Of a stretch of 64,000 bases of DNA, positions 11,532-49,110 are shown piece by piece. The position numbers and the translations under genes are program-made. How positions within the stretch are numbered: position 1 is the stretch's first letter; every line of letters begins with the position of its first letter. This stretch comes from a bacterium. Lineage in GTDB: Bacteria; Vulcanimicrobiota; Xenobia; Xenobiales; Xenobiaceae. Location: contig JAUNIO010000002.1 in NCBI GenBank assembly GCA_030535355.1, positions 8,781 through 72,780 of the forward strand. The letters run 5' to 3'. The notes under the pieces were generated by a model that worked only from the letters and a program-made list of their open reading frames with translations, was not told the DNA's origin and ran no database searches.

Positions 11532-11697
11532 AAGTTAGCCTCGGCAATATTGGCTATGCTTCTAGATAACGTAGAAATCGTTTTGTGGCGCTGTCTAGTT
11601 TCGCTTATGACAATACGCTTATTTCAGAACTGCCGCTGAGCTCGTTAATTCATTTAAGCGTCGTGCCACAGAATCTCGCCAAAGCAAAGAGCACAGT

Positions 11698-11880
11698 CCC
11701 GTTAAGTTAGCAATTAGCTAACTTAACGGGACTGTATGACTCCCCCTAAAGGATGTAATATCATTTAGTTAGCGATCAGCTAACTTGCGAAACTATCTGA
11801 CTCCCCCTAAAGGATGGGAGGGGGAGAAGTCGCGACTGCGACAGAGGGGGTGCCCACGACTGTTGGGAAATCGAGGTCTA
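11698..11880. repeat. Family-A palindromic MITE-like intergenic repeat. It includes a perfect 33-nt palindrome at 11698-11730 and a partial internal duplication.
   Basis: The core gactccccctaaaggatgggagggggagaagtcgcgactgcgacagaggg recurs in either orientation at 21383, 25606, 49108, 53706, 56709 and 56943. Confidence 0.8.
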
Positions 11881-11904
11881 GTGTGTGTCATGCTTCAGCT
11901 TATA

Positions 11905-11995
11905 AGCAGGCATAAACGTAACGATAATTGTATATGAGTCAACATTTCCAATGTCGTTGAGCCTTAAGTTAACGACATTGGCGAAGAGCGAAAAT
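11905..11995. repeat. Family-B palindromic repeat, the reverse complement of the copies at 56837 and 57188.
   Basis: ggcataaacgtaacgataattgtatatgagtcaacatttccaatgtcgttgagccttaa matches the reverse complement of 56841-56910 with few mismatches. Confidence 0.7.
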
Positions 11996-13055: not shown

Positions 13056-14406
13056 AAAGAAAAAATCTCTCCCTCCCTCCAAGGCCAGTATTTGGCGGCC
13101 CGGTTTAGGCATTAAGCGCTGTTTTTTCGCTCTGGCTGCCGGGTTTATTTTCTTATGCTGCGGCATCATTCTGCTTTTCAGCACCACCTGGGCACTATGC
13201 GTGGAAGAAAGCTTGACAAACGCCAGCTTAAATTGGCTGGGGTGGCACATTTCCAGCTTTAGCGTCGATATTTTTCTACTGGTTTTAGGGCTTGTATGTC
13301 TGGGTTGGGGACTGTGGCGAGCGGCTTCGTTCCTTTATAACGCGTCTCAGGCCCACCCCAGCTCTAGCATGATGGATGCCCTGGCCTTAGGGCGGCGGCG
13401 CAATTACGGTCTGAAGATCGTGGCCTTAGGCGGCGGTACTGGCTTATCTACACTGCTGCGCGGCCTCAAAAAATACACCTCCAATATTACCGCCGTAGTT
13501 TCCGTTTCCGACAACGGCGGCAGTTCGGGACGGCTTTCCAAGGAACTGGCGATGCTGCCCCCCGGCGACATCCGCAACTGCCTGACCGCCCTGGCCGACG
13601 ACGAAGACCTGCTGACCGAGCTGTTCCGCTTCCGCTTCGATAAAGGGGAAAGCCAAAGTTTAGGAGGCCACGCTTTCGGAAACCTTTTTATAGCCGCCCT
13701 GAACCAGATTTACGGCGACTTTGAAGTAGCTTTAAAAAAAGGCAGCGCCCTGCTGGCCATCCGCGGCCGGGTTCTTCCCGCCACATTAACAGCTACGGTG
13801 CTGTGCGCGAAGATGCGCGATGGGCGGATTATTAAAGGAGAAAGCGAGATTCCCAGCGCTCAGGGAGAGATCACCGATGTATTTTTAGAACCTGGCAGCT
13901 GCCAGGCACCCCCCGAGGTGATTAAAGCTATCGAAGAAGCCGACGCCATCATTTTGGGGCCGGGAAGCTTATACACCAGTGTCATGCCCAACCTGCTGAT
14001 CAAAAATATCGTCAAAGCGCTGGAGCGCACCGAAGCCCCCATTATTTATGTCTGCAACGTGATGACTCAAAACGGGGAGACCGACGGCTATACGGCAGCC
14101 GACCATTTGCAGGCCATCTATCACCATCTCAAAAAGCCCCTGGTCGATTACGTAATCGCCAATGCCAGCGCCCCCAACAAAAAACTGCTGGAAAAATACG
14201 CTAAAGAAGGTTCAAAGCCGGTGGTTCTGGATTACGAGCGCCTGCAAAGCATGGGAGTGCATCCAGTTTATGCCAAATTATCCAAAGATGAGCAGCTGGT
14301 GCGCCACGATCCCGACTATTTAGCTGAAGCGATTATGGATCTGCTGGGAGAGGTCAAATACCGCGACGGCTCAGAAGGCGCGGACAGCATGAGATCGCCG
14401 AATTAA
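13024..14406 (+). CDS. YvcK / CofD-like (UPF0052, gluconeogenesis-factor family) protein with an unusual ~130-aa N-terminal extension carrying two predicted TM helices.
   Basis: The core starts KIVALGGGTGLSTLLRGLK. It overlaps rapZ by 32 nt, the conserved rapZ-yvcK arrangement. The N-terminus has hydrophobic segments (FFALAAGFIFLCCGIILLF, IFLLVLGLVCLGWGLW). Confidence 0.8.
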   Translation: MTAKTTTNTPKKKKSLPPSKASIWRPGLGIKRCFFALAAGFIFLCCGIILLFSTTWALCVEESLTNASLNWLGWHISSFSVDIFLLVLGLVCLGWGLWRAASFLYNASQAHPSSSMMDALALGRRRNYGLKIVALGGGTGLSTLLRGLKKYTSNITAVVSVSDNGGSSGRLSKELAMLPPGDIRNCLTALADDEDLLTELFRFRFDKGESQSLGGHAFGNLFIAALNQIYGDFEVALKKGSALLAIRGRVLPATLTATVLCAKMRDGRIIKGESEIPSAQGEITDVFLEPGSCQAPPEVIKAIEEADAIILGPGSLYTSVMPNLLIKNIVKALERTEAPIIYVCNVMTQNGETDGYTAADHLQAIYHHLKKPLVDYVIANASAPNKKLLEKYAKEGSKPVVLDYERLQSMGVHPVYAKLSKDEQLVRHDPDYLAEAIMDLLGEVKYRDGSEGADSMRSPN

Positions 14407-14771: not shown

Positions 14772-15446
14772 ATGTCCAAAATACGGGCAACAATCGCAGA
14801 TGGCTGCGATTCAAGTATTATTCCTGGTCTTCAGTACGATGGATTATTAGGTATCCCGCTTATCAAAAGGCCAGACAAAATCATCATTCCGAAAAACATC
14901 GTACCATTTTCCAAACGCAATTACACAGCCGATCTCGACGTAGCCATCGGATTCTACGAGATGGACGAAAAATTTGCTGATTTGCTCTGCCATCCGGAAG
15001 CATATGTCGAAGATTTAAGTCGCTTTTCAGCGATAATCTCTCCCGACTGTTCTCTATACCTGCCCAACTCACTGGGCAGCCACATTACTAACATATATAG
15101 AAGCCGGCTTATCGGCTGCTTCTTTCAGGCCAAACGCCTGTACGTCATACCTCAAATCCGCTGGGGCAAAGAAACTACTTATACGGCAGGGGCATTGCAA
15201 GAAAAAGCTGCTTTCCTCGGCGTTGAAAAACACAGCATTGTAGCGATCGGCACTTACGGCTGCTGTCAGCACAGAGAAGAAAAGCGCCATCTCAAAGCTG
15301 GGTTAAGTGCTATGCTAGATACGGTACAGCCAGATACCGTGTTGGTGTATGGGCCTATGCCTCCGGCAATTTTCGGCGAGTTCCTCCAAAGAACAAACTT
15401 TGTTCCTTACGACAACTGGTTAAAACGCGTAAAGGGAGGACAATAG
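14772..15446 (+). CDS. Uncharacterised protein of 224 aa, paralog A of the island pair.
   Basis: It is homologous over its whole length to the 16545..17210 product (IPxxxRPxKIxIP, VIPxxRW, YTAxxL, FVxYxxW). An RBS (AGAGGAGG) is present and it lies in a low-GC context. Confidence 0.6.
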   Translation: MSKIRATIADGCDSSIIPGLQYDGLLGIPLIKRPDKIIIPKNIVPFSKRNYTADLDVAIGFYEMDEKFADLLCHPEAYVEDLSRFSAIISPDCSLYLPNSLGSHITNIYRSRLIGCFFQAKRLYVIPQIRWGKETTYTAGALQEKAAFLGVEKHSIVAIGTYGCCQHREEKRHLKAGLSAMLDTVQPDTVLVYGPMPPAIFGEFLQRTNFVPYDNWLKRVKGGQ

Positions 15447-15447
15447 T

Positions 15448-15957
15448 ATGGGTAGCGGCAGCAGTTATTCCTATTCTGGAACCAGCGGCGGGTCGCAGCC
15501 CTACGCTGAAACCTACGGGGTAGTTCCCGAAGCGCTCAACAAAGACAAGAAAGACCCCGACATTTACGATAAAGCAGAAGGGTATTTCAAGAATCCGACA
15601 GCAGTATCTCTAGCTTCCGCTATAGATGGTAACAGAGTGACTTTTAATAATCTCAGCGCCCATGGAAAATACACTTATGTTATGGATAAGAACGGCAATA
15701 TTATCTTTGGTAAACGTTGCAATCCTAATGACATAAGCAAACGTTCTCCTCATCCTACGCTCATTGGAGGTAAAAATCCACAAGTGCAATGCGCAGGTAT
15801 TATCGCGATGAGCAAAGGGAAAATCACCAATATAGATAATATGAGCGGACATTTTAAGCCGCATCATAGATCTTTAAATAAGGTTTATGACGCTCTTCAT
15901 AAACTGCATGAAAGCAATCCTAACATCTTCTCTACACGTTTTCAATGGAGGGAATAG
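15448..15957 (+). CDS. Candidate toxin of 169 aa with a Gly/Ser-rich N-terminus and a C-terminal HNH/EndoVII-like motif (sGH-x3-HH-x3-N-x7-H).
   Basis: It starts 1 nt after paralog A with a GGGAGGA RBS. The motif is MSGHFKPHHRSLNKVYDALHKLH. It is immediately followed by a small acidic ORF. Confidence 0.5.
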   Translation: MGSGSSYSYSGTSGGSQPYAETYGVVPEALNKDKKDPDIYDKAEGYFKNPTAVSLASAIDGNRVTFNNLSAHGKYTYVMDKNGNIIFGKRCNPNDISKRSPHPTLIGGKNPQVQCAGIIAMSKGKITNIDNMSGHFKPHHRSLNKVYDALHKLHESNPNIFSTRFQWRE

Positions 15958-15959
15958 GT

Positions 15960-16418
15960 ATGGAAGAAGAGATATTAAGTTATGAAACCGCTTCTTTATT
16001 TAATCGTTCTTTCGAAGAAGAGATCACAGATGCTGAAGAGACAGCATTACTAGATCGCGCAAACGCTTTAATTAATACGTTTGGCTGGAAAAAGGTGTTT
16101 AACTCTTGGAATAACTACCTTCACCACCAATGCCTAACTCCAGAATCTGCGATCAATTTCGCCAATTGGTTCTGGTTCTATGGAGGTCATGAGCACCCAA
16201 TCCCCAATCCTTATCATTTTATAGCGTATTTCTATTATCGTATTGACTATGCAATTCAGAAATATGACATTTCGGATATCTTGGATAGTCTCGCTACCAG
16301 CATCTTGCCCAAAGCAGGCCATCGCGAAGCGGATTTATATCTAAATCCCTACTACATGCCGGAAAGTGACCCCCAAATACGGGCAGAAGTTGAAAAGCTC
16401 AAAAAACAAAACAGCTAA
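15960..16418 (+). CDS. Candidate immunity or partner protein (~153 aa, acidic, Trp/Tyr-rich).
   Basis: The ATG lies 2 nt after the preceding stop, with a GGAGGGAAT RBS. It has no recognisable domain. The ORF track gives an in-frame upstream start at 15945 that would overlap the toxin stop. Confidence 0.45.
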   Translation: MEEEILSYETASLFNRSFEEEITDAEETALLDRANALINTFGWKKVFNSWNNYLHHQCLTPESAINFANWFWFYGGHEHPIPNPYHFIAYFYYRIDYAIQKYDISDILDSLATSILPKAGHREADLYLNPYYMPESDPQIRAEVEKLKKQNS

Positions 16419-16544
16419 CCACACCAGACTACGCCAGAAGAATTCTCACTGCTAAAGCTTCAAAGCATCTCAATGAGTACTTCTGGCTTCATTTTCACTG
16501 CACAGCACTTGTTTGATAATAGCTATTGTCAGGAGAGAAAACTC

Positions 16545-17210
16545 ATGCCGAAACAACAATACCGCGACGACGGCTGTAACCCAGAAATACTTGCTGGGGC
16601 AAAATTTGCAGGCACTCTAGAAATACCAGTCGTAGAACGGCCTAGCAAAATCGTTATACCAGATACGCCAGTTCCTTTTTCACAGCACGCACAATGCCAA
16701 AATCAAAACGCTTTCTTAGTCATCTCCGAACCTGATGTCAATTTCTCTGATATTCTGCGCAATCCAGAACCTTATTGCCAAATCGCTAACAATTACGCAG
16801 GCATAATAACTTTAGAACCCGCTCTATTCACTGGAGCTAAGCTAGCTGAACAAATCGCTGTAACCCAGCGCAACCGCACTTTGGCACATTGTTTTCAAAG
16901 GCACTGCGTTGAAGTTATCCCACATCTGCGCTGGAAAGACAAAAATAGCTATACAGCGACCGTTTTGCCAGATAAAATCGCCTTAATAGGTCTGCCCCTA
17001 AACAGCATTGTGGCCTTGGAAACTAATTCATGTCTTAATAGCGACATGGACAAACTGCGTTTACAGTTAGGCCTACAAGCCGTTCTGGAAGAACTGCAGC
17101 CGCAAATTATTTTAATATTCGGAGCTATGCCTGACGAAGTATTCTCCAATTTTCAGCATGATACCGTATTTGTCAATTATAATCCATGGCCACCAACAAC
17201 ATCTTTATAA
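16545..17210 (+). CDS. Uncharacterised protein, paralog B of 14772..15446.
   Basis: It is homologous to paralog A. The start at 16545 is preferred (RBS AGGAGAG). The upstream region is homologous to the region upstream of paralog A. Confidence 0.6.
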   Translation: MPKQQYRDDGCNPEILAGAKFAGTLEIPVVERPSKIVIPDTPVPFSQHAQCQNQNAFLVISEPDVNFSDILRNPEPYCQIANNYAGIITLEPALFTGAKLAEQIAVTQRNRTLAHCFQRHCVEVIPHLRWKDKNSYTATVLPDKIALIGLPLNSIVALETNSCLNSDMDKLRLQLGLQAVLEELQPQIILIFGAMPDEVFSNFQHDTVFVNYNPWPPTTSL

Positions 17211-17324
17211 ATCGGCAGCAAACTACCAGCGGCTTACATCAACCTTCTGGTTGATAATATTCGTTACTTGGTGTAAACTACTTCACGTTAGCGGATGGTA
17301 AAACAACAATGGGGAGGTGAGCAC

Positions 17325-17699
17325 ATGCTGACAAGTTTAGGCAAGTTTTTGAGAAAACTGCGCATAGACAGAGGAGAGATACTACGCGACATGGCGGACA
17401 AACTTGGCGTTACAGTATCATTTCTCTCTGCTGTTGAAAATGGCAAAAAAAGAATGCCCTCATTATGGAATAACAGAATCTGTGAGCTATATAGCCTGGA
17501 TATACATCAGCAAGAATCTTTTACAAAAGCGATAGCTGAAACAGAAGATACCATTGAAATGAATTTAACTTCAGCCAGCGCCAACAGACGGGAATTAGCT
17601 ATTGCTTTCGCGCGCTCTTTTCACAATATCGATACTGAGCAGATAACTGCCATTCATAAAATACTACAGAAAAGGAAGCAAAGCAATGACCAGCATTAA
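17325..17699 (+). CDS. XRE-family helix-turn-helix transcriptional regulator.
   Basis: The N-terminal HTH (LRKLRIDRGEILRDMADKLGVTVSFLSAVENGKK) and a GGAGGTGA RBS support the 17325 start. Confidence 0.7.
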   Translation: MLTSLGKFLRKLRIDRGEILRDMADKLGVTVSFLSAVENGKKRMPSLWNNRICELYSLDIHQQESFTKAIAETEDTIEMNLTSASANRRELAIAFARSFHNIDTEQITAIHKILQKRKQSNDQH

Positions 17700-18213
17700 A
17701 GCTAACCCTATATCTCGGATAGAAATTAGAAAAATAGCCTATATTATACGTGCCATAGCCGATACGCTCAACAGTCCTTATTTTCCAATAATATATTTTA
17801 TTGAGCATACTTTACCAAGAGATATGCCAGAATTCAATTACGAAATTGTTAATCTACAAGATATGCCTCACAATCATGCTGAAACACATCCTGACCAAAA
17901 CCTAATACAAATTAGGGAAGATGTATATCTTAGGGCTATAAAGGGCTGTGGTAGGGATCGCTTTACCCTTGCTCATGAACTAGGCCATTTATTATTACAT
18001 AGAGCCAACTGCATTTCATTATGCAGATTAGCTCCTAATAAAAGATTAAAACCATACGAAAACCCGGAATGGCAAGCCAATGCTTTTGCAGGGGAGCTAC
18101 TTATGCCGATAGATATAATCAAAGATATGAGTATCTATCAAATCTGTCATCAATGCGGCGTTTCTGCAGATGCCGCCCGGTGTCAGCTCAGCTTACTTAA
18201 AAATGCCAGATGA
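17686..18213 (+). CDS. ImmA/IrrE-family (COG2856) zinc metallopeptidase.
   Basis: It has the HEXXH motif (LAHELGHLLLH) in the typical context and overlaps the XRE gene by 14 nt, the classic XRE-ImmA pair. Confidence 0.75.
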   Translation: MTSIKANPISRIEIRKIAYIIRAIADTLNSPYFPIIYFIEHTLPRDMPEFNYEIVNLQDMPHNHAETHPDQNLIQIREDVYLRAIKGCGRDRFTLAHELGHLLLHRANCISLCRLAPNKRLKPYENPEWQANAFAGELLMPIDIIKDMSIYQICHQCGVSADAARCQLSLLKNAR

Positions 18214-21382: not shown

Positions 21383-21450
21383 TCCCCCTAGACGGAGCAG
21401 GGGGAGAAGTCGCGAATGCGACAGAGGGAGTCCGTTAAACTGATGGAAAA
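21383..21450. repeat. Partial family-A repeat copy.
   Basis: ctccccctagacggagcagggggagaagtcgcgaatgcgacagaggg matches the family-A core. Confidence 0.7.
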
Positions 21451-21594: not shown

Positions 21595-21627
21595 AAGCCC
21601 TTTCTCAGCGAAAGGGCTTATTTAATT
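21595..21627 (+). terminator. Rho-independent terminator-like hairpin (aagccctttctcagcgaaagggctt followed by ATTTAATT), then a 20-nt tandem direct repeat (ttaattcggg[g/a]aacacagct, twice).
   Basis: A perfect 9-bp stem with a T-rich tail. It is 310 nt downstream of the PLP-enzyme gene, so it may terminate a small transcript. Confidence 0.5.
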
Positions 21628-21713
21628 CGGGGAACACAGCTTTAATTCGGGAAACACAGCTGACTTACATTGCTGTTCTTTTCATAATAAGCCAAAATAT
21701 AGTATAATAAAAA

Positions 21714-23214: not shown

Positions 23215-25590
23215 GTGAAGCAAGAAACCGCCAAAAATAAATATATAGCTTTAGGACGAGAAATATTAACCGCTTTGGTATGGGGCGCCGCCGTCGCCGT
23301 GGGTTCTCTGTCAACCCACACCAGCTGGGGCATTACCACTGCTTTTCTAGGCGGTTTAGCGGGAAGTTTATGCGGCTATTATCTCAAAAACAGCCGCTTG
23401 CGCAGCATCGCCTTAGCCGTGGGCGCCTTGCTGATCTACGGAGTTTGGTCTGTGCTCTGTTCCTGGCAGATCAACAGCGCTTTTTTGGCATCGCTCTTAG
23501 GTGTTGACAGCGCCTACCTCTGTTATGATGCCTGTCAGAGTTTTGGAACATGTTTTCTGGCAGTAACGGTTTTGCACACTTTGGCCTGGCGCTATCCGGC
23601 CTGCACCGCTATAGAGCTGATCGTCATCGCCATCGCCCTAGCCACACCTTTAGCTGGTCACCGCGACGGTTATATCTGCCGCCCCTACGGTTTTGTCGAC
23701 GCCATATGGTCACGCGGTTACGATCCCATTCCTTTCTTTAAAGCCTTTGGAGTCATGGTTGCCGCTCTATTTTTAATGGCAACTACTGGGCGCTACAACC
23801 GGCGCAGCACTATTATCGATTTAAGCATTTTGCTGCTCTTAGCGCTCATACTCAGCACCTTTACCCTGCCCAACGTGCTGACCCAGCCGCTGCCCGAACA
23901 GATCCAAATGGGACAGGAAAGCGACAGCGAACAGCAGAGTTCTCAGCAGAATCAAAAAGACGATAAGCAAAAAGACAAACAGGCCAAGAACAGCGATAAT
24001 AAAGATCAGCAGAATAGCCAAGATCAGAAAGACAAACAAAACCAGCAAGAAAATAAAGATAAAAACGATAAGGACCAGCAGCAAAAAAACAGCCAAAGGG
24101 ATGCCAATAAAGACAATCAGCAGCAAAACCAGAATCAGTCCCAAAACGACGACAAAGATAAGGAAAACGATAGCTCCTCACCGCCCCCTCCGCCTCATCC
24201 AGTAGCCGTAGTCGTCTTTTATCAAAGTTATGACCCCAGTGACGGCTATCTGTACTTCCGCCAAAGCGCTCAGAGTTTCTACAACGGCAAACGCTTGGTA
24301 GCAGAGACCGATTCGTCTTTCGACAAAGACATAGCCTGGCATTTTCCCCAGACGGACACCCAGGACAAACTCTTCACTCCCGTCCAGGTCGCCACAGAGC
24401 ACATGGACATGTTTAAGCCAATCAATACCAGGGTCTGCCTGATGACCGCTCACGATCAGCCCTTCGGCCTGCTGACTCCGCTCAAAATGACGGCCATCAG
24501 CAACCCCAATGCCAATCAGTTTATCCGCGCCTATCAGGTGCAGTCGCAATGCTTCACCGGAGACCTGAGCAAGTTTATCACTTGGAAAACTGGAAATCCC
24601 CATTGGGATAAAAAGACCTGGGATCACTACTTAGATGTTTCATCCGATAAACGCTACGCTGACTTAGCCCAAAAAATAACCGGGCATATGTCCGGCGGCT
24701 ACGCCAATTCACCTATAGCAAAAGTGCTGGCCTGCAAGCTATGGCTAGAGGACAACTGCACTTACGACATCGGAGTCACAATAACCGACAAGGACGATGT
24801 CGTAGGGAAATTCCTGTTCGGCAATCGCACAGGCTACTGTGTGCACTTAGCCCATTCGCTCACCTATTTAGCTAGAACCCTGCGCGTGCCAGCCCGCGTA
24901 GGCACGGGATATGCTGTGGAAGCGCGCAACAGATATGGCGGTTCTTCCCTGATGATCCGCAGCAACGAAGCACACGCCTGGTGCGAAATATATGTCGCCG
25001 GTATAGGCTGGATTCCCATCGATGTAACGCCTAAGAAACATAATGGCGGATGCTGCCAGCCGCCGCCTGATGCCGATTTGCAGAAAATGCTGGGAGAGCT
25101 GGCCCGCGAAGAATCCGGCAAAGTGTCCGAAGAGGGCAGTGCGCCGAAAAACTTTATGATCAGCGTTCAGGATGTCCTAATCGTCATCGGCAAAATTTTA
25201 GCTGTCTTGGCTGCACTCTTTACCATCGCCTGCTACATTATCAAAGCAGCCCGCCGCCTCAGCCCCAGCTTTACGGCCATGCCCAAGCGCATTGATACAG
25301 CCTACCGCACCGCTTTAGATTGCCTCTCCGATGTCGGCCTGCGCCGCTACTACGGCGAAGCCCGCGAAGATTTTGCCACGCGCTGTTACGATACTCTGCC
25401 CGCTCTGCGCGCCTTAACCGATCTGCACATGCGTAAGGCCTTAGGCGACAAGAGCTGGGAACCCAAGGCCAACAGTAAAGCTGTCAGCAAACTGTATGGA
25501 GAGTTCAAACATCAGTTCCGCCAACAGTTTCCCTTGTGGAAACGCGTTTTAGGAGCCCTCAATCCTTTCTCCTGGCTCTTGACTAAATAA
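23215..25590 (+). CDS. TgpA-like membrane transglutaminase. It has an N-terminal multi-TM domain, a ~100-aa Q/N/K/D-rich low-complexity linker ending in PPPPPHP, a transglutaminase core (Cys-His-Asp) and a C-terminal TM helix.
   Basis: The core has GYCVHLAHSLTYLARTLRVPARV (Cys), EAHAWCEIY (His) and IPIDVTP (Asp). 791 aa. Confidence 0.8.
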   Translation: MKQETAKNKYIALGREILTALVWGAAVAVGSLSTHTSWGITTAFLGGLAGSLCGYYLKNSRLRSIALAVGALLIYGVWSVLCSWQINSAFLASLLGVDSAYLCYDACQSFGTCFLAVTVLHTLAWRYPACTAIELIVIAIALATPLAGHRDGYICRPYGFVDAIWSRGYDPIPFFKAFGVMVAALFLMATTGRYNRRSTIIDLSILLLLALILSTFTLPNVLTQPLPEQIQMGQESDSEQQSSQQNQKDDKQKDKQAKNSDNKDQQNSQDQKDKQNQQENKDKNDKDQQQKNSQRDANKDNQQQNQNQSQNDDKDKENDSSSPPPPPHPVAVVVFYQSYDPSDGYLYFRQSAQSFYNGKRLVAETDSSFDKDIAWHFPQTDTQDKLFTPVQVATEHMDMFKPINTRVCLMTAHDQPFGLLTPLKMTAISNPNANQFIRAYQVQSQCFTGDLSKFITWKTGNPHWDKKTWDHYLDVSSDKRYADLAQKITGHMSGGYANSPIAKVLACKLWLEDNCTYDIGVTITDKDDVVGKFLFGNRTGYCVHLAHSLTYLARTLRVPARVGTGYAVEARNRYGGSSLMIRSNEAHAWCEIYVAGIGWIPIDVTPKKHNGGCCQPPPDADLQKMLGELAREESGKVSEEGSAPKNFMISVQDVLIVIGKILAVLAALFTIACYIIKAARRLSPSFTAMPKRIDTAYRTALDCLSDVGLRRYYGEAREDFATRCYDTLPALRALTDLHMRKALGDKSWEPKANSKAVSKLYGEFKHQFRQQFPLWKRVLGALNPFSWLLTK

Positions 25591-25605
25591 TATTAGCTAA
25601 AGGGT

Positions 25606-25728
25606 CAGTACCGTTAAGTCAGCAATTAGCTAACTTGCTAATATCATTTAGTTAGCGATCAGCTAACTTGCGAAACTATCTGACTCCCCCTAAAGAATGG
25701 GAGGGGGTTGCGTCTTAACCAAATGACA
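25606..25728. mobile_element. Family-A MITE-like element of 123 nt flanked by a 12-nt direct repeat (tagctaaagggt at 25594-25605 and 25729-25740).
   Basis: The ends are imperfectly inverted (cgttaagtc ... gacttaacc-like). The internal gttagc-gatc-agctaac and ctccccc/gggggag palindromes are shared with the other copies. Confidence 0.7.
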
Positions 25729-25738
25729 TAGCTAAAGG

Positions 25739-26812
25739 GTGATCGTGCCCAGGCATATAAATATGCGTTATGCAACGCAGACATTTAATGGAGGTTATAC
25801 CTTGGACGCCGCAGCGAATGCTCCCAACAGGGATCAATATTTAAACAATGCTTATGGTGTATTTCACACTTTGGAGCAACGCCTCAAACATGCGGTACGC
25901 GGCCGCGATAACGTTATCGATTTACTGCTCATCGCTTTAATGGCTGACGGCCACGTGCTTCTGGAAGATCACCCCGGCTCCGGTAAAACCACTTTGGCCA
26001 AAGCGCTGGGCGACTCCATTTACGATGACCGCAACAACCAAGAATTTGAGGCATTTCGGCGTATCCAATTCACGCCCGACCTCCTGCCCTCCGATATTAC
26101 AGGCATGACCATTTTCGAGCCTGAAAGCGCTACCTTCACATTCCGTCCTGGCCCGCTTTTCGCCTATATAGTCTTAGCCGACGAAATTAACCGCACCTCT
26201 CCGAAGGTACAGTCCGCCATGCTCGAAGCTATGGCGGAAAAGCAGGTAACCGTCGATAACGTTTCCCATAAACTGGGGGAGCTGTTCTTCGTCGTAGCCA
26301 CCCAAAACCCGCGCGACCAAGCGGGCACCTATCCTCTGCCTGTAGCCCAGCACGACCGCTTTTTATTTAAGATACGCATGACTTACATCGACCGCGACGC
26401 CGAGATCGACGTTTTGCGCAGCAGTCACGAGCGCAAAGCCCCCATTCCCAACAATCTGCCTCAGATCGCCGTCTCACAGATCATCGCTGCCCGGCGCACC
26501 ATAGATAGATTTGTCCGCGTGGATGAGCGCATCCAGGCCTGTCTGGTCGATATGGCCCGGGCCATCCGCCAATCCCCTAACGTCGCCCAGGGAGTCTCTA
26601 CCCGCAGTTTAGTGCTGATGGTACCAGCTCTGCAGGCCTGCGCCTTAAAACGGGCCCGCGATTTCGTCAGCGCCGAAGACGTCGCCTATCTGATACCTTA
26701 CGTTTTCGCCCATCGTCTGGAACTGGCTCCCGGCATAGACGATCCCATTAAAGTTATCCGCGACTGCTGCAAACCTTCTCTGGAGCAGCTGTGCCGCTCC
26801 ACGCTCAAATAG
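25739..26812 (+). CDS. MoxR-family AAA+ ATPase.
   Basis: It has Walker A (EDHPGSGKTTLAKALG) and Walker B (IVLADEINR), with the MoxR-typical length and context next to DUF58 and TgpA. Confidence 0.85.
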   Translation: MIVPRHINMRYATQTFNGGYTLDAAANAPNRDQYLNNAYGVFHTLEQRLKHAVRGRDNVIDLLLIALMADGHVLLEDHPGSGKTTLAKALGDSIYDDRNNQEFEAFRRIQFTPDLLPSDITGMTIFEPESATFTFRPGPLFAYIVLADEINRTSPKVQSAMLEAMAEKQVTVDNVSHKLGELFFVVATQNPRDQAGTYPLPVAQHDRFLFKIRMTYIDRDAEIDVLRSSHERKAPIPNNLPQIAVSQIIAARRTIDRFVRVDERIQACLVDMARAIRQSPNVAQGVSTRSLVLMVPALQACALKRARDFVSAEDVAYLIPYVFAHRLELAPGIDDPIKVIRDCCKPSLEQLCRSTLK

Positions 26813-26875: not shown

Positions 26876-28963
26876 ATGCAATTTCTAGGCGGAAACAGCG
26901 AAATGTTTGGATTTAAGACAAAACATACCAAGCGCGTTTTTATCGGCATAGCCTTAGCTTTGGCGCTAGGAGCTCCAGTCGAGTCGCGTCTTCCTCAGAC
27001 CGCCGAAACGACGGCTAAGCTAACGCTGTCCGTGGGCGAGATGCAAGAGCTGATGAAAAACGACAAGGACCTCATCGACCAGCGCACCCGGGCGGAAAAG
27101 ATGCTCAAAGCCAATGCCAAAGACTACAAAGCGCATCTGCTGCTCGGCTACGTCCTGCACCACGCCGAAGGCGATTTAGCCCGCGCCCGCTACCATTTGG
27201 ACAAATCGCATAAATATGTCTTAAAAGCTGTCGGCAACGATATGGAAGCCCGGCAGTTTTACGGTATTATCTGTTTCGAGCTGCTCATGGTGCTCACCGA
27301 AATGGACCAATACGAAGATAAAATCACTCTGCTGCGCGAGATGTCGTCCACAATGAGCAACAAAGAGCTGTGGATGTCAGAGATGGCCTGGCCGCTCATG
27401 AAACTGGATAAGGAAAAAGAAGCGCGCCAGATTATTCAGCAGATTCTCAGCAGCGGCAATCCCGGGGCCCGCATAAATGCCTGGAACACCCTAGGGGCCT
27501 TGGAATCCGATTTGGGCCACTATCAAGCCGCCTACGACGCCTTCGACGGTCTGCTCAAAGAGGCGGCCCGCTATAGCAAGCCCAACATAACTTTTTACCG
27601 CAACATGGGCGAAGCCTGCCTACCCTTAGGGCTTTATGAAGACGCCGAAAAATACTATTCCCAGGCGGCCAAACTGCCTTTCGAAGACGATTCCTTTTCC
27701 AATCCCTATCAAGATTTAACCAGCATCTACCTCTCCCAAGCCCGCTTCAGCGAAGCCATGAACGCTATGAAGAAAACGGTGGAATGGAGCAATGCCACCA
27801 AACCGTTCCTCTACCAGCAGTCCATGGCCGACAACACTCAGCTCAAAGGTATGCTGCTGCTGGAACTAGGGCTTCCCGCCGAAGCAGTCGATACCCTACA
27901 GCTGTTGGTACAGCGCCCCGATCGCCGCGGCGGCACTTCCCTGCGCATCGATCAGACAGAAGCCGGAAACCTGCTGTGCTGGCGCACCGCTCTGAAAACC
28001 AATTTGCAGCGCAACCAAGAGCGTTTGGCCGCCACGAGTTTTTTCAGCGGCGCTTTATCCCTAATCCGCTACGGCTGGCAGCGCTTAACCCAAGGCAAAA
28101 CCACGCTGAGCACCGATGCTATGTATGTCAATTTGGTCTGGGAAAATATTCAGATGCGCCGCCAAATCGACCAAGCGGAAAAGCGCATCGCCGCTCTTTC
28201 CGCCAACAGCCAGCGCATTCGCGCTTCCATGCTTCCCTATGATACCCAATCGGTCATCACCACGGAATGGATGCGCCCCAACCTCATGGGAATTTGGGGA
28301 ACTGGCCTAAGCCAAGCTGCTATCGACGATATTCGGCAAAAACCACCCGAAAGATACGCTGTGGCCGAACCCTTCCTGGCCGCGCTGCAGGGCGAAATCG
28401 CTTTTTTAAACGGCAGCTACCGCCGCAGTGCCGAACTGTTCAGCGTAGCTATGAAAACTCTGCCGCGTCAAGAAGCTTTGCTGCGCTATCGCACGGAAAC
28501 CCGTCTGGCCATGGCCTTGCTGAAATGCGGCAAAGAATCAGAAGCGCTGCAGCTGTTCCAGCACGTGATCAGCGGCGATGGAGCTATGCTGCGCGAAGCC
28601 GAGGCGCGTTTACCCATCATCGCCAAGGTAAATGCCTCCGAGCAGAGTTCAAGTTTTAATTCCGCAGTGCTCAAAGGCCTCAAGCGCTCTCCTCGTTTCA
28701 AAGTAGGTTCCCGGGGCCTGCAGCTGACGGTGGCATCAGCAGGCAAAGAAGATTTGCGCGTCGCCGTCAGCGACAGCAGCGGCAATTCCATTAAAGTTTT
28801 TCATGTATCCCTCAAAAAACCCAACGCACCGCTGGCCGAAGTAGCTTTGGCGGGAATCCACGATGGCCTGTGCGCTCCCAATATCAACCTGAGCGGGCTT
28901 GCCGACAGTCTCGACGGGACTATGAACAGCGCTAACGTGCGCGATCTAATTCAGTACTATTAA
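26876..28963 (+). CDS. Secreted TPR-like repeat protein (Bat-operon-like), paralog 1.
   Basis: It has a signal peptide (the true start may be M at 26906, MFGFKTKHTKRVFIGIALALALGAP) and is ~45% identical along its whole length to the 29828..31951 product. Confidence 0.7.
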   Translation: MQFLGGNSEMFGFKTKHTKRVFIGIALALALGAPVESRLPQTAETTAKLTLSVGEMQELMKNDKDLIDQRTRAEKMLKANAKDYKAHLLLGYVLHHAEGDLARARYHLDKSHKYVLKAVGNDMEARQFYGIICFELLMVLTEMDQYEDKITLLREMSSTMSNKELWMSEMAWPLMKLDKEKEARQIIQQILSSGNPGARINAWNTLGALESDLGHYQAAYDAFDGLLKEAARYSKPNITFYRNMGEACLPLGLYEDAEKYYSQAAKLPFEDDSFSNPYQDLTSIYLSQARFSEAMNAMKKTVEWSNATKPFLYQQSMADNTQLKGMLLLELGLPAEAVDTLQLLVQRPDRRGGTSLRIDQTEAGNLLCWRTALKTNLQRNQERLAATSFFSGALSLIRYGWQRLTQGKTTLSTDAMYVNLVWENIQMRRQIDQAEKRIAALSANSQRIRASMLPYDTQSVITTEWMRPNLMGIWGTGLSQAAIDDIRQKPPERYAVAEPFLAALQGEIAFLNGSYRRSAELFSVAMKTLPRQEALLRYRTETRLAMALLKCGKESEALQLFQHVISGDGAMLREAEARLPIIAKVNASEQSSSFNSAVLKGLKRSPRFKVGSRGLQLTVASAGKEDLRVAVSDSSGNSIKVFHVSLKKPNAPLAEVALAGIHDGLCAPNINLSGLADSLDGTMNSANVRDLIQYY

Positions 28964-29124: not shown

Positions 29125-29787
29125 ATGGAATACATTCACCAGCTCATGTACTATTTTAGCGCCGAGGGCATCAAGGACATCATCACCTGGGGCGGACTAA
29201 TTATTCTGGTGGCTATCATATTTTCTGAAACCGGCCTCTTAATCGGTTTCTTTCTCCCCGGCGATTCTCTGCTGGTTATCTCGGGATTCGTAGCTTCGGC
29301 TTCCGACGGCACTCTGCACATAGGCAGTTTGCTCTTTTGGCTCTGCATCGCGGCCGTTTTAGGAGATACCACAGGTTATTATATCGGCAAAAAGGCCGGT
29401 GACGCCCTATATAACCGGCCGCAAACAAAATGGTTCCGGCGCGATCACCTGTTGAAAGCCAAGGCGTTTTACGAAAAATACGGAGGCATCACCATCGTAT
29501 TAGCGCGTTTCATGCCCTTTATACGCACGTTCGCTCCCACCGTGGCCGGAATCGCAAAAATGAACTACAGCAAATTCCTGTCCTTCAATATCTTCGGCGG
29601 CATCGGCTGGGTATGCTCGATGGTGCTGATCGGCTATTTCTTCGGTCAGATTCCCTTAGTGCAGCAGCATATCGAAAAAATACTGATTCTCATTATCGTG
29701 CTGTCGCTGCTGCCCATCGTCCTTCACGCCATTAAAGAGAAAAAAAAGGCCAACCTTCCCCCGGCAGCAGATGCTGACGCTAAATAA
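29125..29787 (+). CDS. DedA / SNARE-associated family membrane protein.
   Basis: 220 aa with multiple TM helices and DedA-like motifs (FLPGDSLLV, RFMPFIRTFAP). It has an AGGAG RBS. Confidence 0.8.
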   Translation: MEYIHQLMYYFSAEGIKDIITWGGLIILVAIIFSETGLLIGFFLPGDSLLVISGFVASASDGTLHIGSLLFWLCIAAVLGDTTGYYIGKKAGDALYNRPQTKWFRRDHLLKAKAFYEKYGGITIVLARFMPFIRTFAPTVAGIAKMNYSKFLSFNIFGGIGWVCSMVLIGYFFGQIPLVQQHIEKILILIIVLSLLPIVLHAIKEKKKANLPPAADADAK

Positions 29788-29827
29788 TTGGAGGCAGCGC
29801 AGATGGCGAAAATTGGAGGCAGCGCAG

Positions 29828-31951
29828 ATGGCGAAGTTTCTCAGGCAAAAGAAACAATTAGGCAGTTTGCTGGCAGGCACAGCGCTAGTCTTAGCATTGA
29901 GCGCTCCTTTAGCCGCTGCCCCACCTAAGCCTTCGCCTTCGCCTTCTGCCTCAGCTTCTGCGCGGCCCAAGGCCGCAGCCGCGGCCACAGTGGACACTTC
30001 TAAACCGCTGACCTTAAAATCTTTAATCGAAATAATCGACGGCGGCAAAAACTTAATCGATGAGCGCACCCACGCCGAACAGCTGCTCAAAGCCAATCCC
30101 AAAGATTATAAAGCCCACTTTTTGCTGGGTTACATCATGCACCGCGCTGAAGGAGATCTGCCCCGGGCCCGTTACCATCTGCAAAAAGCTAACAAGATTG
30201 CTCTGCGCTCTGCCAGAAAGGGCGACAAAGAAGCTCAGCAGCTTTATTTTGCCGTATCGGTCGAATTAGCCGAGGTTCTGGGCGAAATGGATCAGTACAG
30301 CGCTAAGATCAGAATGCTGCGCGAGATGTCCTCCTACACGCGCGATAATGCTGAGTTTACCGTGCAAATGGCCTGGCCGCTCATGAAACTGAATAAGGAA
30401 AAAGCCGCCCGCCAAGCCATCCAAAAGAGCCTCAGCAATGATGACGTATCAGTGCAGACCACAGCGTTAAACACTCTCGGTGCTCTAGAATCGTATTTGG
30501 GCCACCATCAGGCCGCTTACGACACTGGCAAAAAACTCCTGGAAAAAGCTAAAGGCAAAGACAAACCCAATCTGATAACCTATTATAGCAATATGGGATT
30601 AAACTGCCTGCCCCTGGGATACTACGAAGAAGCGGAAAAATACTTTTTACAAGCGGCCGACAGACCATTTAGCGACCACGCATATACCAACCCCCATACC
30701 CATCTTTGCTGGCTGTATCTAAGTCAAGCCCGCTTTAGTGAGACCATCAACTCTCTGCACAAAGCTGAACGGTGGAGCAGAGCCACCAAGCCCTTCCTCT
30801 ACCAGCAGTCGATCGCCGGTATAACTGAGCTTCAGGGAACCGTCTATTTGGAATTGGGTTTGCCGGAAAAAGCCGTGCAGACCTTAAGCTGGCTGGTCCA
30901 GCGCCCTGACCGCCGCGGCACTAATTCCACCCACGTCGATCAAACCGAAGCCGGCAACCTGCTGACCTGGCGCACGGCCTTATACGCCAATCTGCAGCGC
31001 AACCGCGAGCGCTTAGCCGCTACAGATTTTCGGAGCGGGGCGCTGACTTTAATAAGGTATGGCTGGCAGCGTCTGCGGCACGGGCAAGGCGAACTAAGCG
31101 CCGACGCCATCTACTTCAATTTAGTCTGGGACAATCTGCAAATGCGCCGCCAAATTGACCAGGCCGACAAGCGCATTGCCGCTCTAACCGCAGGCCATAA
31201 GCGCATCCGCGCCTCCATGCTCCCCTATTTCGATCAGTCCATAAACACTTCAGAATGGCTGCGCCCCAATCTGGTGGGAATATTGGGAACAGGTCTCAGC
31301 CAGGCGACCATAGATAAAATAAAGAAACGGCCTCCCGAACAATACGAAAAGCATAAGCCCTTCCTAGCCGTCCTGCAAGGGGAGGCCGCCTTTCTGAACG
31401 GCAGCTACCGGAAAAGTGCCGAACTGCTTAAGCAGGCGCTGCAGAGTTTACCGAAACAAGAGGCGCTCCTGCGCCTGCGCACCGAAACCCGCCTGGCCAT
31501 GGCCCTTTTAAAATGCGGCCAAGAAGCAGAAGCACTGCCCTTGCTAAAGCACGTCATCAGCCAAAACGGTGCCATGCTGCGCGAAGTAGGTGCCCGCCTG
31601 CCAGTTAAGCTGCAAATTGAGACGACCTTGCAAGGCAAGGATTTTAACGAAGAACTCATCCAAGGGATCCGCCGCTCCCCCCGCTTTCAAGTTGATTCTA
31701 GCGGTTTTGTGCTCTTAGTTACTTCAGCCAGCCCCAACTCGCTAAGGGTAACGGTCAGCGATGAAAGCGGCAATTCCTTTAAATCTTATAATGTCACCCT
31801 GCGCAGTTCCAGCACTCCTTTAGCGGAAATAGCGTTGGCGGGCATTCACGACGGCCTGTGCACTCCCAGCATCAGTCTCAGCGGCTTGGATGACAGCATC
31901 GACGGCTCCAACACCAGCATCGGTGTCCGAGAGCTAATTAAATACAAGTAA
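29828..31951 (+). CDS. Secreted TPR-like repeat protein, paralog 2.
   Basis: A signal peptide follows the ATG at 29828 (MAKFLRQKKQLGSLLAGTALVLALSAPLAAA). The ORF track extends upstream to 29771 across a tandemly duplicated RBS/start segment. Confidence 0.7.
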   Translation: MAKFLRQKKQLGSLLAGTALVLALSAPLAAAPPKPSPSPSASASARPKAAAAATVDTSKPLTLKSLIEIIDGGKNLIDERTHAEQLLKANPKDYKAHFLLGYIMHRAEGDLPRARYHLQKANKIALRSARKGDKEAQQLYFAVSVELAEVLGEMDQYSAKIRMLREMSSYTRDNAEFTVQMAWPLMKLNKEKAARQAIQKSLSNDDVSVQTTALNTLGALESYLGHHQAAYDTGKKLLEKAKGKDKPNLITYYSNMGLNCLPLGYYEEAEKYFLQAADRPFSDHAYTNPHTHLCWLYLSQARFSETINSLHKAERWSRATKPFLYQQSIAGITELQGTVYLELGLPEKAVQTLSWLVQRPDRRGTNSTHVDQTEAGNLLTWRTALYANLQRNRERLAATDFRSGALTLIRYGWQRLRHGQGELSADAIYFNLVWDNLQMRRQIDQADKRIAALTAGHKRIRASMLPYFDQSINTSEWLRPNLVGILGTGLSQATIDKIKKRPPEQYEKHKPFLAVLQGEAAFLNGSYRKSAELLKQALQSLPKQEALLRLRTETRLAMALLKCGQEAEALPLLKHVISQNGAMLREVGARLPVKLQIETTLQGKDFNEELIQGIRRSPRFQVDSSGFVLLVTSASPNSLRVTVSDESGNSFKSYNVTLRSSSTPLAEIALAGIHDGLCTPSISLSGLDDSIDGSNTSIGVRELIKYK

Positions 31952-34234: not shown

Positions 34235-35403
34235 TGCGTATGAAAAGAAGTCCCGCTTCCGTTTGGCCCATTTTGCTCTGCCTTAGCCTCTGCCTTAGCG
34301 TTAGCTCTCCTATTTTCGCGCAGGACCCCGGCGAAGTGCGCGAAGACCTGCGCGAAAAGAAGGGAGAGCTGCGCTACCAGCAAAGCCGCTTAGACACGCT
34401 CAACGAGCGCGAACGCGATTTATCAAGACAGCTCAGCGATTCCCAATACGACCTTCAGGAAAGCCGCACCGCGTTAAACAACACCGTGGCCCGTTTGGAA
34501 AGTGCCCAGGCCCGCTATGAAGATATTCAGACCCGGCTCAGCGTGGCCACCAAAAAATACCGCAGCAGCCAAGCCCTGCTGGGGCAGCGCCTGCGCGATA
34601 TTTACATGCAGGGCGATATGGGCTATCTGTTGGTCCTTCTGGGATCGCAGAGCTTTACAGATTTTCTGGATTATGCTCACTACATCGCTATTATCGTTAA
34701 CCGCGACTACGAACTGCTAGATGAAGTGCGCCAGCTGAGAGCCGAGCTGCACAGCCAGGCCCAAGCCGCCCAGGAAGCGCTGATCGAGATGCGCCAGCTG
34801 CGCGACGATCAGGAAGCCCGCGTCAGCCGTCTGAGCAAAATTGAGCAGCGCCGCGCCGCTCTGCTCAGCGACGTGCAGAGCCAGCGCGCAAAAGTGGCTC
34901 AATACGTGACAGAACTGGAAGGCAGCACTCAAGAGTTAGAAAACAAGCTGCACAGAACGCTGGTCAAACGCCAGTCGCACGCCCGGCCGCATATCCCTCA
35001 AAAGAAGCGCACCTGGGGAACTGGCCGTTTTATAACCCCGGCAGAAGGTCCCATAACTTCTCCCTACGGGTACCGCGTGCACCCCATATTTGGGACTCTG
35101 CGCTTTCACTCGGGAATCGATATTGGAGCTTATTACGGTTCCAGCATTTTAGCCGCTGACAGCGGCATAGTAATCGAAGCCGGCTGGATAGGCGGTTACG
35201 GCAATACAGTCATGATCGATCACGGCGGAGGCTACAGCACGCTCTACGGCCACTGTTCCCAGCTTTACGTGCGCAACGGGCAAATGGTCCGTCAGGGAGA
35301 GCCTATCGCCGCTGTGGGCAGTACCGGCAATTCTACAGGGCCGCACCTGCATTTTGAGGTGCGCATCAACGGCGATCCCGTCGATCCCTTAGGGTTTATT
35401 TAG
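34234..35403 (+). CDS. Coiled-coil M23 (LytM) metallopeptidase, the EnvC/PcsB/RipC-like FtsEX partner. The catalytic residues are intact.
   Basis: It has a signal peptide, a long coiled coil and C-terminal HSGIDI...YGHCS...HLHFEV. Confidence 0.8.
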   Translation: MRMKRSPASVWPILLCLSLCLSVSSPIFAQDPGEVREDLREKKGELRYQQSRLDTLNERERDLSRQLSDSQYDLQESRTALNNTVARLESAQARYEDIQTRLSVATKKYRSSQALLGQRLRDIYMQGDMGYLLVLLGSQSFTDFLDYAHYIAIIVNRDYELLDEVRQLRAELHSQAQAAQEALIEMRQLRDDQEARVSRLSKIEQRRAALLSDVQSQRAKVAQYVTELEGSTQELENKLHRTLVKRQSHARPHIPQKKRTWGTGRFITPAEGPITSPYGYRVHPIFGTLRFHSGIDIGAYYGSSILAADSGIVIEAGWIGGYGNTVMIDHGGGYSTLYGHCSQLYVRNGQMVRQGEPIAAVGSTGNSTGPHLHFEVRINGDPVDPLGFI

Positions 35404-35497
35404 CCTTAACTAAATAACATTGCTCAAATCATCACTATAGGTTTATAATGCAAAGGTATCGGGGACCTAAGCATTCCCCGTGCAGTGAGGAGACAAC

Positions 35498-48573: not shown

Positions 48574-49110
48574 ATGGAGATGACCACCGATAGGCTCATT
48601 CTGCGGCATTGGCAAGAATCCGACGCCGCAGATTTATTCAAATATGCCCAAGACCCGCGAATCGGGTATATGGCGGGATTTCCCGCGCACACTTGCGTAG
48701 AGGAAAGTTTGGATATTATACGCAGAATTCTGTCAAACCCCGGTCTCTACGCAGTTTGTCTGAAAACAGACAAGCTGCCTATAGGCTGTATAGGCATGCA
48801 CCCCACTAAGCAAAAGCTCTGCAAGATAGGGAAAGAAATTGAGATAGCTTTTTGGCTGGGAGTCCCGTTTTGGGGGCAGGCCATCATCCCAGAAGCTATA
48901 CGCCGTTTCCAAAAGCACATCTTTGAAGATTTGGGATTTGAGGCTATATGGTGCTCCTACTGCGAGGGCAACGAGAATTCCAAAAGATGTATGGAAAAGT
49001 GCGGTTTCGTATACCATCACACCGAAGAGAATACGCCATACATTTTTTTGCACGAAAACCGCACAGAGCATTTTACCAGACTGACAAAAGATGAGTGGCT
49101 AAAGCTTTAA
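48574..49110 (+). CDS. GNAT-family N-acetyltransferase.
   Basis: 178 aa with an acetyl-CoA binding region (IAFWLGVPFWGQAIIPEA). Confidence 0.7.
   Translation: MEMTTDRLILRHWQESDAADLFKYAQDPRIGYMAGFPAHTCVEESLDIIRRILSNPGLYAVCLKTDKLPIGCIGMHPTKQKLCKIGKEIEIAFWLGVPFWGQAIIPEAIRRFQKHIFEDLGFEAIWCSYCEGNENSKRCMEKCGFVYHHTEENTPYIFLHENRTEHFTRLTKDEWLKL

Follow-up and report, generated by a model that had tools for sequence, protein, structure and literature searches.

A probable miniature inverted-repeat transposable element, internally deleted and flanked by a short duplication, between a TgpA-like gene and moxR in an uncultivated bacterium

What kind of DNA is the 123-nt block, bounded by two identical 12-mers, that lies between a TgpA-like gene and moxR in an uncultivated bacterium of the Xenobiaceae? 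The window analyzed here, 64,000 nucleotides of contig JAUNIO010000002.1, carries the block at 25606 to 25728. An initial annotation had regarded it as the clearest evidence that its repeat family consists of miniature inverted-repeat transposable elements (MITEs), with the 12-mers as a target site duplication. The MITE interpretation is largely supported: the segment from 25606 to 25728 or 25731 is probably a nonautonomous transposon with a target duplication and an internally deleted derivative of its family. As a doubly deleted copy it is not the clearest evidence, however; the copies at 56839 to 57063 in the window and at 6598 to 6817 in L003, a contig from a relative, are cleaner.

The 12-mer TAGCTAAAGGGT is found at 25594 to 25605 and at 25729 to 25740, both on the + strand, exactly as first described, and a search of both strands allowing one mismatch returned only these two matches in the window (0.42 expected). 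The left copy begins 3 nt after the TgpA-like stop codon, and 61 nt separate the right copy from the probable moxR TTG start downstream (25802). Exact 12-mer direct repeats spaced 30 to 400 nt apart are common in themselves, with 24 in the window and ∼5 outside true repeats. What makes this pair unusual is its position directly against the two limits of a repeat-family block, since a 12-mer is shared by the flanks of just 0.02% of random site pairs (P ∼ 2e-4, under a null that true repeats inflate). Homology to the family copy at 11694 starts exactly at the left limit, 25606. The left junction was seen again in L001, an independent Logan contig that then breaks inside the element, and the right junction was seen again in L006, a contig from a sister lineage, where the right 12-mer is identical; the window is therefore not misassembled here.

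The element belongs to one mosaic repeat family with at least 8 loci in the window and members of 92 to 287 nt. The largest clean copy, a 287-nt composite at 11694 to 11980 (+ strand) that is the parent type of the 25.6-kb element, consists of a palindrome (H1, here a perfect 41-nt palindrome), a partial G module, an H2 hairpin module, G, K, L, and a terminal hairpin with the right terminal repeat. G is a G+C-rich hairpin (GACTCCCCCTAAAGGATGGGAGGGGG), and the K and L modules together are ∼150 nt and nonpalindromic. A 225-nt version, from H2 to the terminal hairpin, occupies 11756 to 11980 and is found inverted as the canonical copy at 56839 to 57063 (− strand), with 88% identity over 226 nt. 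Palindromic modules of 32 to 41 nt (11694 to 11734, 11949 to 11980, 56839 to 56870, and 57189 to 57220) form the ends of 220- to 290-nt units with unique sequence. Read inward, these ends share a ∼20-nt motif (CAATGTCGTTAACTTAAGGC, CAATGCCGTTAACTTAAGGA, CAATGTCATTTAGTTAAGGC, TAATATCATTTAGTTAGCGA, and CAGTCCCGTTAAGTTAGCAA), and a terminal-repeat matrix built from ten family arms finds 23 sites in the window versus 3.65 in shuffles. Terminal inverted repeats agree at 15 of 20 positions for 56839/57063, 14 of 20 for L003 6598/6817, and 12 of 20 for 11694/11980. The 14- to 19-nt repeats around H2 (GACTCCCCCTAAAGG...) were considered as a target duplication and rejected, as they extend to 25 nt with mismatches and resemble an internal 61-nt duplication.

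Each end of the 25.6-kb element matches one of the terminal-end types of the family, CAGTNCCGTTAAGT... and CAATGTCRTTNAGTTAAG.... The left end module (25606 to 25638, + strand) is of the H1 type, with the terminal repeat CAGTACCGTTAAGTCAGCAA followed by the loop and a truncated right palindrome arm; it scores 20.8 bits at 25606, and 29 of 31 positions of 25606 to 25636 are identical to 11694 to 11724. An H2 hairpin module with a TAATATCATTTAGTTAGCGA-type end and a G hairpin module (GACTCCCCCTAAAGAATGGGAGGGGG) follow at 25639 to 25707 (+ strand), identified by homology to the other copies (68/69 identical to 11756 to 11824 and 66/69 to the reverse complement of 56995 to 57063). The right terminal repeat, read inward as CTATGTCATTTGGTTAAGAC, lies at 25712 to 25731 (− strand), scores 16.4 bits, matches the terminal arm at 56839 to 56858 at 17 of 20 positions, and is conserved in L006. 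The element is thus 123 to 126 nt long, has no open reading frame (ORF) of ≥60 amino acids inside, and reads as a deletion derivative of the 287-nt type that lost ∼29 nt and ∼150 nt internally and kept both ends. L006 lacks 33 nt of H2 that in the window lie between copies of the 11-nt repeat AGCTAACTTGC (window 25628 to 25671 versus L006 78 to 90), which indicates remodeling of the element by short-repeat-mediated deletion.

The length of the duplication follows from the position of the right terminus. By the end motif this is 25731 (or 25730), and the last 3 nt of the right terminal repeat overlap the right 12-mer, which leaves CTAAAGGGT or GCTAAAGGGT as the duplicated host sequence. What is left of the 12-mer, TA(G), is part of the element end on the right side (...GACATAG, where the canonical end is ...GACATTG) and of repeat-like sequence on the left. 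Since the 2 to 3 additional matching bases fall within repeat-like sequence at either side, the duplication is 9 to 12 nt and most economically 10 nt, probably 25596 to 25605 (GCTAAAGGGT) within the left copy. The flank repeat proposed in the initial annotation is real, with 12 nt as an upper bound, and 10 nt is also the length found at the other three copies.

The flanks of those copies were compared in exact register for all properly oriented end pairs 30 to 700 nt apart in the window. All three pairs of element size have an in-register flank repeat. For 11694/11980 (287 nt), GCAAAGAGCA at 11684 to 11693 and GCGAAGAGCG at 11981 to 11990 agree at 8 of 10 positions; for 25606/25731 (126 nt), CTAAAGGGT agrees at 9 of 9 (12 of 12 if the boundary is placed at 25728); and for 56839/57063 (225 nt), CCTTTAGGGG is perfect over 10 nt at 56829 to 56838 and 57064 to 57073. 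Hairpin pairs of 32 to 41 nt agree at just 2 to 5 of 10 positions. Among random site pairs, the probability is 7.5e-4 for at least 8 of 10, 8.5e-5 for at least 9 of 10, and 2.5e-5 for 10 of 10. A cruder test by homology limits alone found a strong repeat only at 25.6 kb; the end-motif termini reveal the others. With contigs L003 and L011 included, a flanking duplication of ∼10 nt occurs in four of six two-ended copies, so the 25.6-kb copy is not alone in having one, a point on which the initial annotation had made its claim depend (other copies, 10/10, 8/10, and 9/10). At the family level, several features of a MITE are found: small noncoding elements (MITEs are under ∼600 bp), terminal inverted repeats, a flank duplication of constant length, and multiple dispersed copies, including copies outside the window in L006 and in L003, L004, and L011.

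Several relatives have known TgpA identity to the window (L002, 74%; L005, 58%; L003 and L004, 53%, with L011 among the 53% relatives), and L005, which is not syntenic downstream, was left out of the spacer comparison. L002 contains no family sequence at all, and the region upstream of its moxR aligns to the window from AAAGGGTGAT onward (CAAAAAGGGTGATTTCGCTCCGGCATATAAA versus GCTAAAGGGTGATCGTGCCCAGGCATATAAA in the window). Because AAAGGGTGAT adjoins the conserved moxR upstream region in L002, at least 7 nt of the right 12-mer (AAAGGGT) are ancestral host sequence. A host-derived right copy is what a target duplication predicts, unlike a purely element-internal motif. The 12-mer is duplicated without the element in no ortholog, and L002 has the single partial copy AAAGGGTGAT. 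Over 9.7 kb, L006 and the window are 95% identical, and both have the element with an identical right junction and right 12-mer; the insertion therefore predates the split from the sister lineage. To the left of AGGGT/CAGTACC, L006 has the terminal hairpin of another family copy and not the TgpA end; its leftmost ∼48 nt may be a repeat-induced misjoin, given that L009, the other contig of the sister lineage, is chimeric at a shared k-mer on its other side, and the right junction alone is treated as firm.

Unexpectedly, L003, L004, and L011 also carry the family. A 220-nt copy with the same module order lies between moxR and a TPR gene in L003 (6598 to 6817); its ends are CAATGTCGGTAACTTAGCGT and CAATGCCAGTAACTTAAGAG, and its flanks, GCGTCATGAT and GCGTCCTGAT, agree at 9 of 10 positions in exact register with a 10-mer unrelated to CTAAAGG. 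The moxR-TPR spacer in the window is empty at 63 nt, with flanks too diverged to align with L003, and the TgpA-moxR spacer of the window comes to 76 nt once the element and one repeat copy are subtracted, versus 67 nt in L003. The G-K module is ∼93% identical between these lineages (L003 6635 to 6694 versus 11798 to 11857; also 56734 to 56790 and 56969 to 57025) and is better conserved than the terminal repeats. Such identity alongside 53% identity of TgpA is expected for a mobile element, and the sequences suggest either recent horizontal spread or a sequence-specific function of the module.

Together, these comparisons outline how the element probably arose. The family order, over ∼220 to 290 nt, is a terminal repeat with a hairpin, the G hairpin, K, a variable L, and a hairpin with a terminal repeat. 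An element of this kind would have moved into the short spacer between TgpA and moxR by cut-and-paste transposition of the DDE type, catalyzed in trans by a transposase encoded outside the window, most likely of the IS4 family to judge from the ends and the duplication length. Staggered cuts ∼10 bp apart, once filled in, would have duplicated GCTAAAGGGT, where 9 to 12 nt of perfect identity are now seen. Insertion took place before the separation from the 95%-identical sister lineage, and deletions between short repeats, of which the 33-nt indel is an example, have remodeled the element since. Family copies also tend to lie head to tail, sharing a 10-nt junction. The predicted empty-site junction is ACTAAATAATATTAGCTAAAGGGTGATCGTGCCCAGG, with a single copy of the 10- to 12-mer, and an empty allele would read ...AATATTAGCTAAAGGGTGATCG....

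The choice of enzyme family rests on published end signatures. Ends of the IS4 subgroup follow -AATR--------WTW---- with direct repeats of 10 to 13 bp, those of the IS231 subgroup follow CAT-------AA--TAA--- with direct repeats of 10 to 12 bp, and a duplication of ∼10 bp is a hallmark of the IS4 family (PMC2266710 and Table 1 therein). The CAATG and TAATA-type ends agree with 7/7 IS4-subgroup positions and 7/8 IS231 positions, in signatures that are low in information and in a comparison chosen post hoc, prompted by the duplication length; agreement is poorer for CAGTCCC-type ends. IS4 of Escherichia coli K-12 has the ends TAATGCCAGTCAGTTAAGCA and TAATGCCGATCAGTTAAGGA, with a perfect direct repeat of 12 bp (ATCTTGGTTCTG) on either side. 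Scored with the family matrix, the IS4 termini come 3rd and 7th among 23,964 positions, and the family arm CAATGCCGTTAACTTAAGGA matches an E. coli IS4 end at 16 of 20 positions.

Several observations weigh against a MITE with a target duplication, and those that concern the left junction form one group. A terminal-repeat-like sequence, read inward as TAATATTATTTAGTCAAGAG, lies at 25576 to 25595 (− strand; 16.7 bits; 16/20 to 56809 to 56828) and covers the final codons of TgpA (LLTK*) plus the next 5 nt (TATTA). Such a score has a chance of ∼5e-7 per position in shuffles, and the same positions in L002, L003, and L005 score 2.5, −10.0, and −7.2 bits, though ...NPFSWLLTK* is the C-terminal sequence encoded by all four genes. 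Exactly 10 nt lie between the terminus of this repeat-like sequence and the left terminus of the element, and the left 12-mer is not plain host flank. The same geometry, two outward-facing ends separated by 10 nt, is found at three places (25595/25606, 56828/56839, and L006), and the flank 10-mers at several ends are similar to one another (GCTAAAGGGT, CCCCTAAAGG, and GAAATAGGGT) and to the G-hairpin loop within the elements, so that they could be part of the repeat and not host DNA. Similarity also extends beyond the 12-mer, to ∼27 nt at ∼82%, because repeat-like sequence precedes the left copy.

The remaining points concern the family and its surroundings. For the perfect 10-mer at 56829/57064, a pair of adjacent copies with a 235-nt tandem period is an alternative explanation, as a second, truncated copy occupies 56712 to 56828, and the two-ended copies of L011 at 1442 to 1602 and 13325 to 13491 lack an intact flank repeat (1/10 and 2/10). 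GTTAAG and CTTAAC, around which the initial annotation built its imperfect inverted repeats, are present at the termini and form the core of the family end motif, but the pairing is weak, with two ends of different subtypes that match each other at just 9 of 20 positions in the family register. The TgpA-moxR spacer of L002 contains ∼120 nt of unrelated sequence and is not a clean empty site, and no exact empty site was found among the relatives examined. No transposase or REP-associated tyrosine transposase (RAYT) is encoded among the ∼50 ORFs of the window. The termini of IS231L in pBT9727, CATGCCCATCAACTTAAGAA and CATGCCCATCAAGCTAACCA, rank only 22nd and 52nd of 69,964 positions with the family matrix, and membership in the IS231 subgroup is accordingly not claimed. 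Overall, the likeness to IS4/IS231 ends is significant but modest, a good lead to an IS4-family enzyme and not proof of one.

The outward-facing arms are the starting point of a different explanation, in which the family is a palindromic mosaic like repetitive extragenic palindromes (REPs) or bacterial interspersed mosaic elements (BIMEs), with hairpin modules joined by a CTAAAGG linker or loop and spread by a RAYT-type enzyme or recombination; the 12-mers would then be linker copies. At all three places the arms enclose CTAAAGG-type 10-mers and would form long hairpins with a 10-nt loop, and at 56806 to 56861 the 25-nt arms are 92% complementary. H2 is flanked on both sides by GACTCCCCCTAAAGG in three copies, the orientation of the CTAAAGG motif is fixed relative to the element ends, module content differs among copies as in BIMEs, and a transposase is absent nearby. 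We nevertheless consider a mosaic of this kind unlikely, since L002, a lineage without family sequence, has AAAGGGTGAT at the corresponding position, and since the flank repeats GCGTCMTGAT (L003 6598 to 6817) and GCRAAGAGCR (11694 to 11980) are not CTAAAGG-like and yet stand in exact register. The elements also contain 120 to 150 nt of nonpalindromic unique sequence (K and L), and the hairpin feet show no evident conserved tetranucleotide of the GTAG type. A local rearrangement is less credible still. Family sequence would already have lain beside TgpA, and tandem duplication, unequal exchange, or gene conversion from a copy with two ends 10 nt apart would have produced the repeat. This would account for an imperfect repeat of ∼27 nt (CTTGACTAAATAATATTAGCTAAAGGGT versus CTTAACCAAATGACATAGCTAAAGGGT), for the score of the TgpA end as a terminal repeat where its orthologs do not score as one, for the short-repeat-mediated indel within H2, and for the 235-nt tandem arrangement at 56.7 to 57.1 kb. 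It still requires an original insertion that brought the family to the site, it leaves the in-register repeats around the isolated copies (L003 and 11694 to 11980) unexplained, and a 12/12 core with ∼70% identity outside fits a duplication beside two paralogous ends better than one duplicated block. Chance coincidence of two 12-mers in AT-rich intergenic DNA, of which the ∼5 unrelated pairs in the window are examples, is hardly conceivable for a pair that abuts both homology limits of a family block (P ∼ 2e-4) when three further copies have the same geometry.

How, then, could two ends come to lie 10 nt apart if the element is a transposon? Elements may have inserted repeatedly into a preferred 10-mer next to a resident end. 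Possibly, a head-to-tail duplication by unequal exchange between the duplicated 10-mers was instead followed, in the lineage of the window, by a deletion joining the end of the gene to a remnant end at the microhomology ACTAAAT. The third reading is a hairpin module whose loop is conserved, as in the REP/BIME-like mosaic. The first two readings are favored because of the comparison with L002 and the non-CTAAAGG duplications at 11694 to 11980 and in L003. A bolder speculation, to which we attach little weight, is that insertion is not random, that the transposase targets the 10 bp just outside a resident or look-alike terminal repeat, and that the conserved G-K module is functional cargo, such as a structured RNA or a protein-binding site, and not filler. 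Targeting next to ends would build head-to-tail arrays sharing one 10-nt junction and would place ends over host stop codons (TgpA, M23 peptidase, and GNAT) with the encoded C termini unchanged.

Stop codons coincide with family ends elsewhere in the window. A one-ended fragment with H2 and part of G, identified by homology to the family, lies at 49108 to 49165 (+ strand), and the TAA stop of a GNAT acetyltransferase gene (48574 to 49110) is formed by the first three bases of its end (TAATATC...); the insertion may have reshaped the C terminus of this gene. A solo terminal repeat, CAATGTTATTTAGTTAAGGC, at 35403 to 35422 (− strand) begins on the final base of the stop codon of the M23 peptidase gene, and L011 has a full 167-nt element at the equivalent place (within 13300 to 13491), after the same ...DPLGFI* M23 stop. 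The last codons of the M23 peptidase gene pair with the solo terminal repeat (window 35390 to 35422). The 35.4-kb site is not comparable in L009 because that contig (9795 to 11108) is chimeric there, 95% identical up to window position 35369 and then 65% G+C foreign DNA inside a conserved M23 motif. The switch, from a relative of the window with 51 to 57% G+C to unrelated DNA, calls for caution with contigs that run across repeats or conserved motifs. The other family sequences in the window are a fragment with part of H2 followed by G and K (53706 to 53797, − strand) and one with a variant G hairpin and K (21385 to 21446, + strand), both identified by homology, and a hairpin of two terminal-repeat arms (CAATGCCGTTAACTTAAGGA...) at 57189 to 57220 (+ strand), whose arm is the one most like the E. 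coli IS4 ends.

The left neighbor of the element (23215 to 25590, + strand) encodes a TgpA-like transglutaminase-core membrane protein (Pfam Transglut_core, E = 4.8e-19), and the right neighbor (25802 to 26812, + strand) encodes a MoxR-type AAA_3 ATPase. The real moxR start is probably the TTG at 25802, preceded by GGAGG; MoxR orthologs are 335 to 336 amino acids long, and the exact 336-amino-acid product is already a called gene in L006. The element probably lies inside a DUF58-TgpA-MoxR operon. A scan of 25400 to 25900 for promoters and terminators detected no site resembling a promoter and gave no hit within the element, Rfam returned nothing at gathering score for the whole window (a permissive search gave only subthreshold microRNA-hairpin noise), and the single-strand fold of the element is only moderately better than shuffles (z = −2.6). 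A regulatory hairpin was dropped on these grounds; we infer a passenger and not a regulator, and the element is tolerated in two lineages. The spacer itself seems, from the sequences compared, to be a recurrent landing site. L002 has its own ∼120-nt insert at 3522 to 3632, unrelated to the family, with a hairpin of 10-bp stem (AGCGCAGCTG...CAGCTGCGCT).

Exact-protein lookups for other strains with TgpA and the upstream DUF58-like protein returned only L001, from the same strain; PilT-like returned only the same sample, GlnA returned no record, and MoxR returned the sister-lineage contigs L006 and L009. Exact scans for the family modules AGTTAGCGATCAGCTAACYTGCG and GACTCCCCCTAAAGRATGGGAGGGGG in genome and metagenome contig collections gave 0 matches each, the hairpin-arm pattern gave 0 against viral contigs, and BLAST of the 307-nt composite found no match among plasmids.

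Several features of the window lie apart from the family. Tandem repeats of ∼254 nt (91% identical) occupy 7411 to 7895 in the gene for a BspA-type leucine-rich-repeat/Big_2 surface protein (7537 to 9465). Paralogous TPR genes at 26876 to 28963 and 29771 to 31951 (∼67 to 76% nucleotide identity, offset of ∼2985 nt) have a VTT-domain gene between them; the two-TPR arrangement is also found in L009, and L011 apparently has one TPR gene. A cluster at 14772 to 18213, with two DUF4417 genes, two genes without a family match, an XRE-type HTH gene, and a gene for an IrrE-like M78 peptidase, has the appearance of a mobile or defense-type islet, and no integrase or transposase was seen in it. Upstream of the DUF58-like gene, at 21596 to 21660, a G+C-rich hairpin followed by T's (AAGCCCTTTCTCAGCGAAAGGGCTTATTT) precedes a direct tandem repeat (TTAATTCGGGGAACACAGC and TTAATTCGGGAAACACAGC).

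The element is a new example of a well-known kind and involves no new mechanism. What the analysis provides is a usable definition of a repeat family for an uncultivated bacterial lineage, with ∼20-nt ends, a ∼10-bp duplication, and a module order, which explains why assemblies of these genomes break between genes (the two Logan contigs both stop within the repeat) and points to a likely IS4-family transposase to look for. Slightly beyond the routine are the 10-nt spacing of outward-facing ends at three places, the ends over stop codons with the protein C terminus preserved, and an internal module far better conserved than host genes.

Among known systems, the closest parallels are IS4-family MITEs and mobile insertion cassettes such as MIC231, mobilized in trans by the IS231 transposase, which are likewise small and noncoding with imperfect terminal inverted repeats of ∼20 nt. 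IS4-family elements duplicate about one helical turn of flanking DNA, and the duplications here are 10, 10, 9 to 12, and 10 nt. The IS231A target has the consensus GGG(N)5CCC, which the duplications here do not fit. The family differs from IS4-family MITEs in its highly conserved internal G-K module and subterminal hairpins, in its head-to-tail pairs sharing a 10-nt junction, and in its host, an uncultivated lineage unrelated to Bacillus or Enterobacteria; in addition, no cognate transposase is encoded in the window, and its CAGTCCC-type ends fit poorly. A target preference is reported for the IS4 and IS231 subgroups (PMC2266710), and there is evidence of one here too. With REP, BIME, and REPIN sequences, which depend on RAYT enzymes (IS200/IS605-like Y1), the family has in common intergenic palindromic modules of 32 to 41 nt in mosaic arrangement, often just after stop codons. 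REPs have no target duplication, insert 3' of a short specific motif, and carry a conserved tetranucleotide at the hairpin foot, whereas ∼10-nt in-register repeats, with sequences that differ between loci and present in four of six two-ended copies, and long nonpalindromic segments are found here. BOX, Correia (NEMIS), and ERIC elements resemble the family as modular, hairpin-forming, dispersed intergenic sequences of 100 to 300 nt that are often cotranscribed with their neighbors. Correia and RUP elements duplicate TA (IS630-like), and we know of no clear duplication for BOX. Compared with BOX, Correia, and ERIC elements, the 10-nt duplication and the CAATG... ends of the family described here point to a different transposase family.

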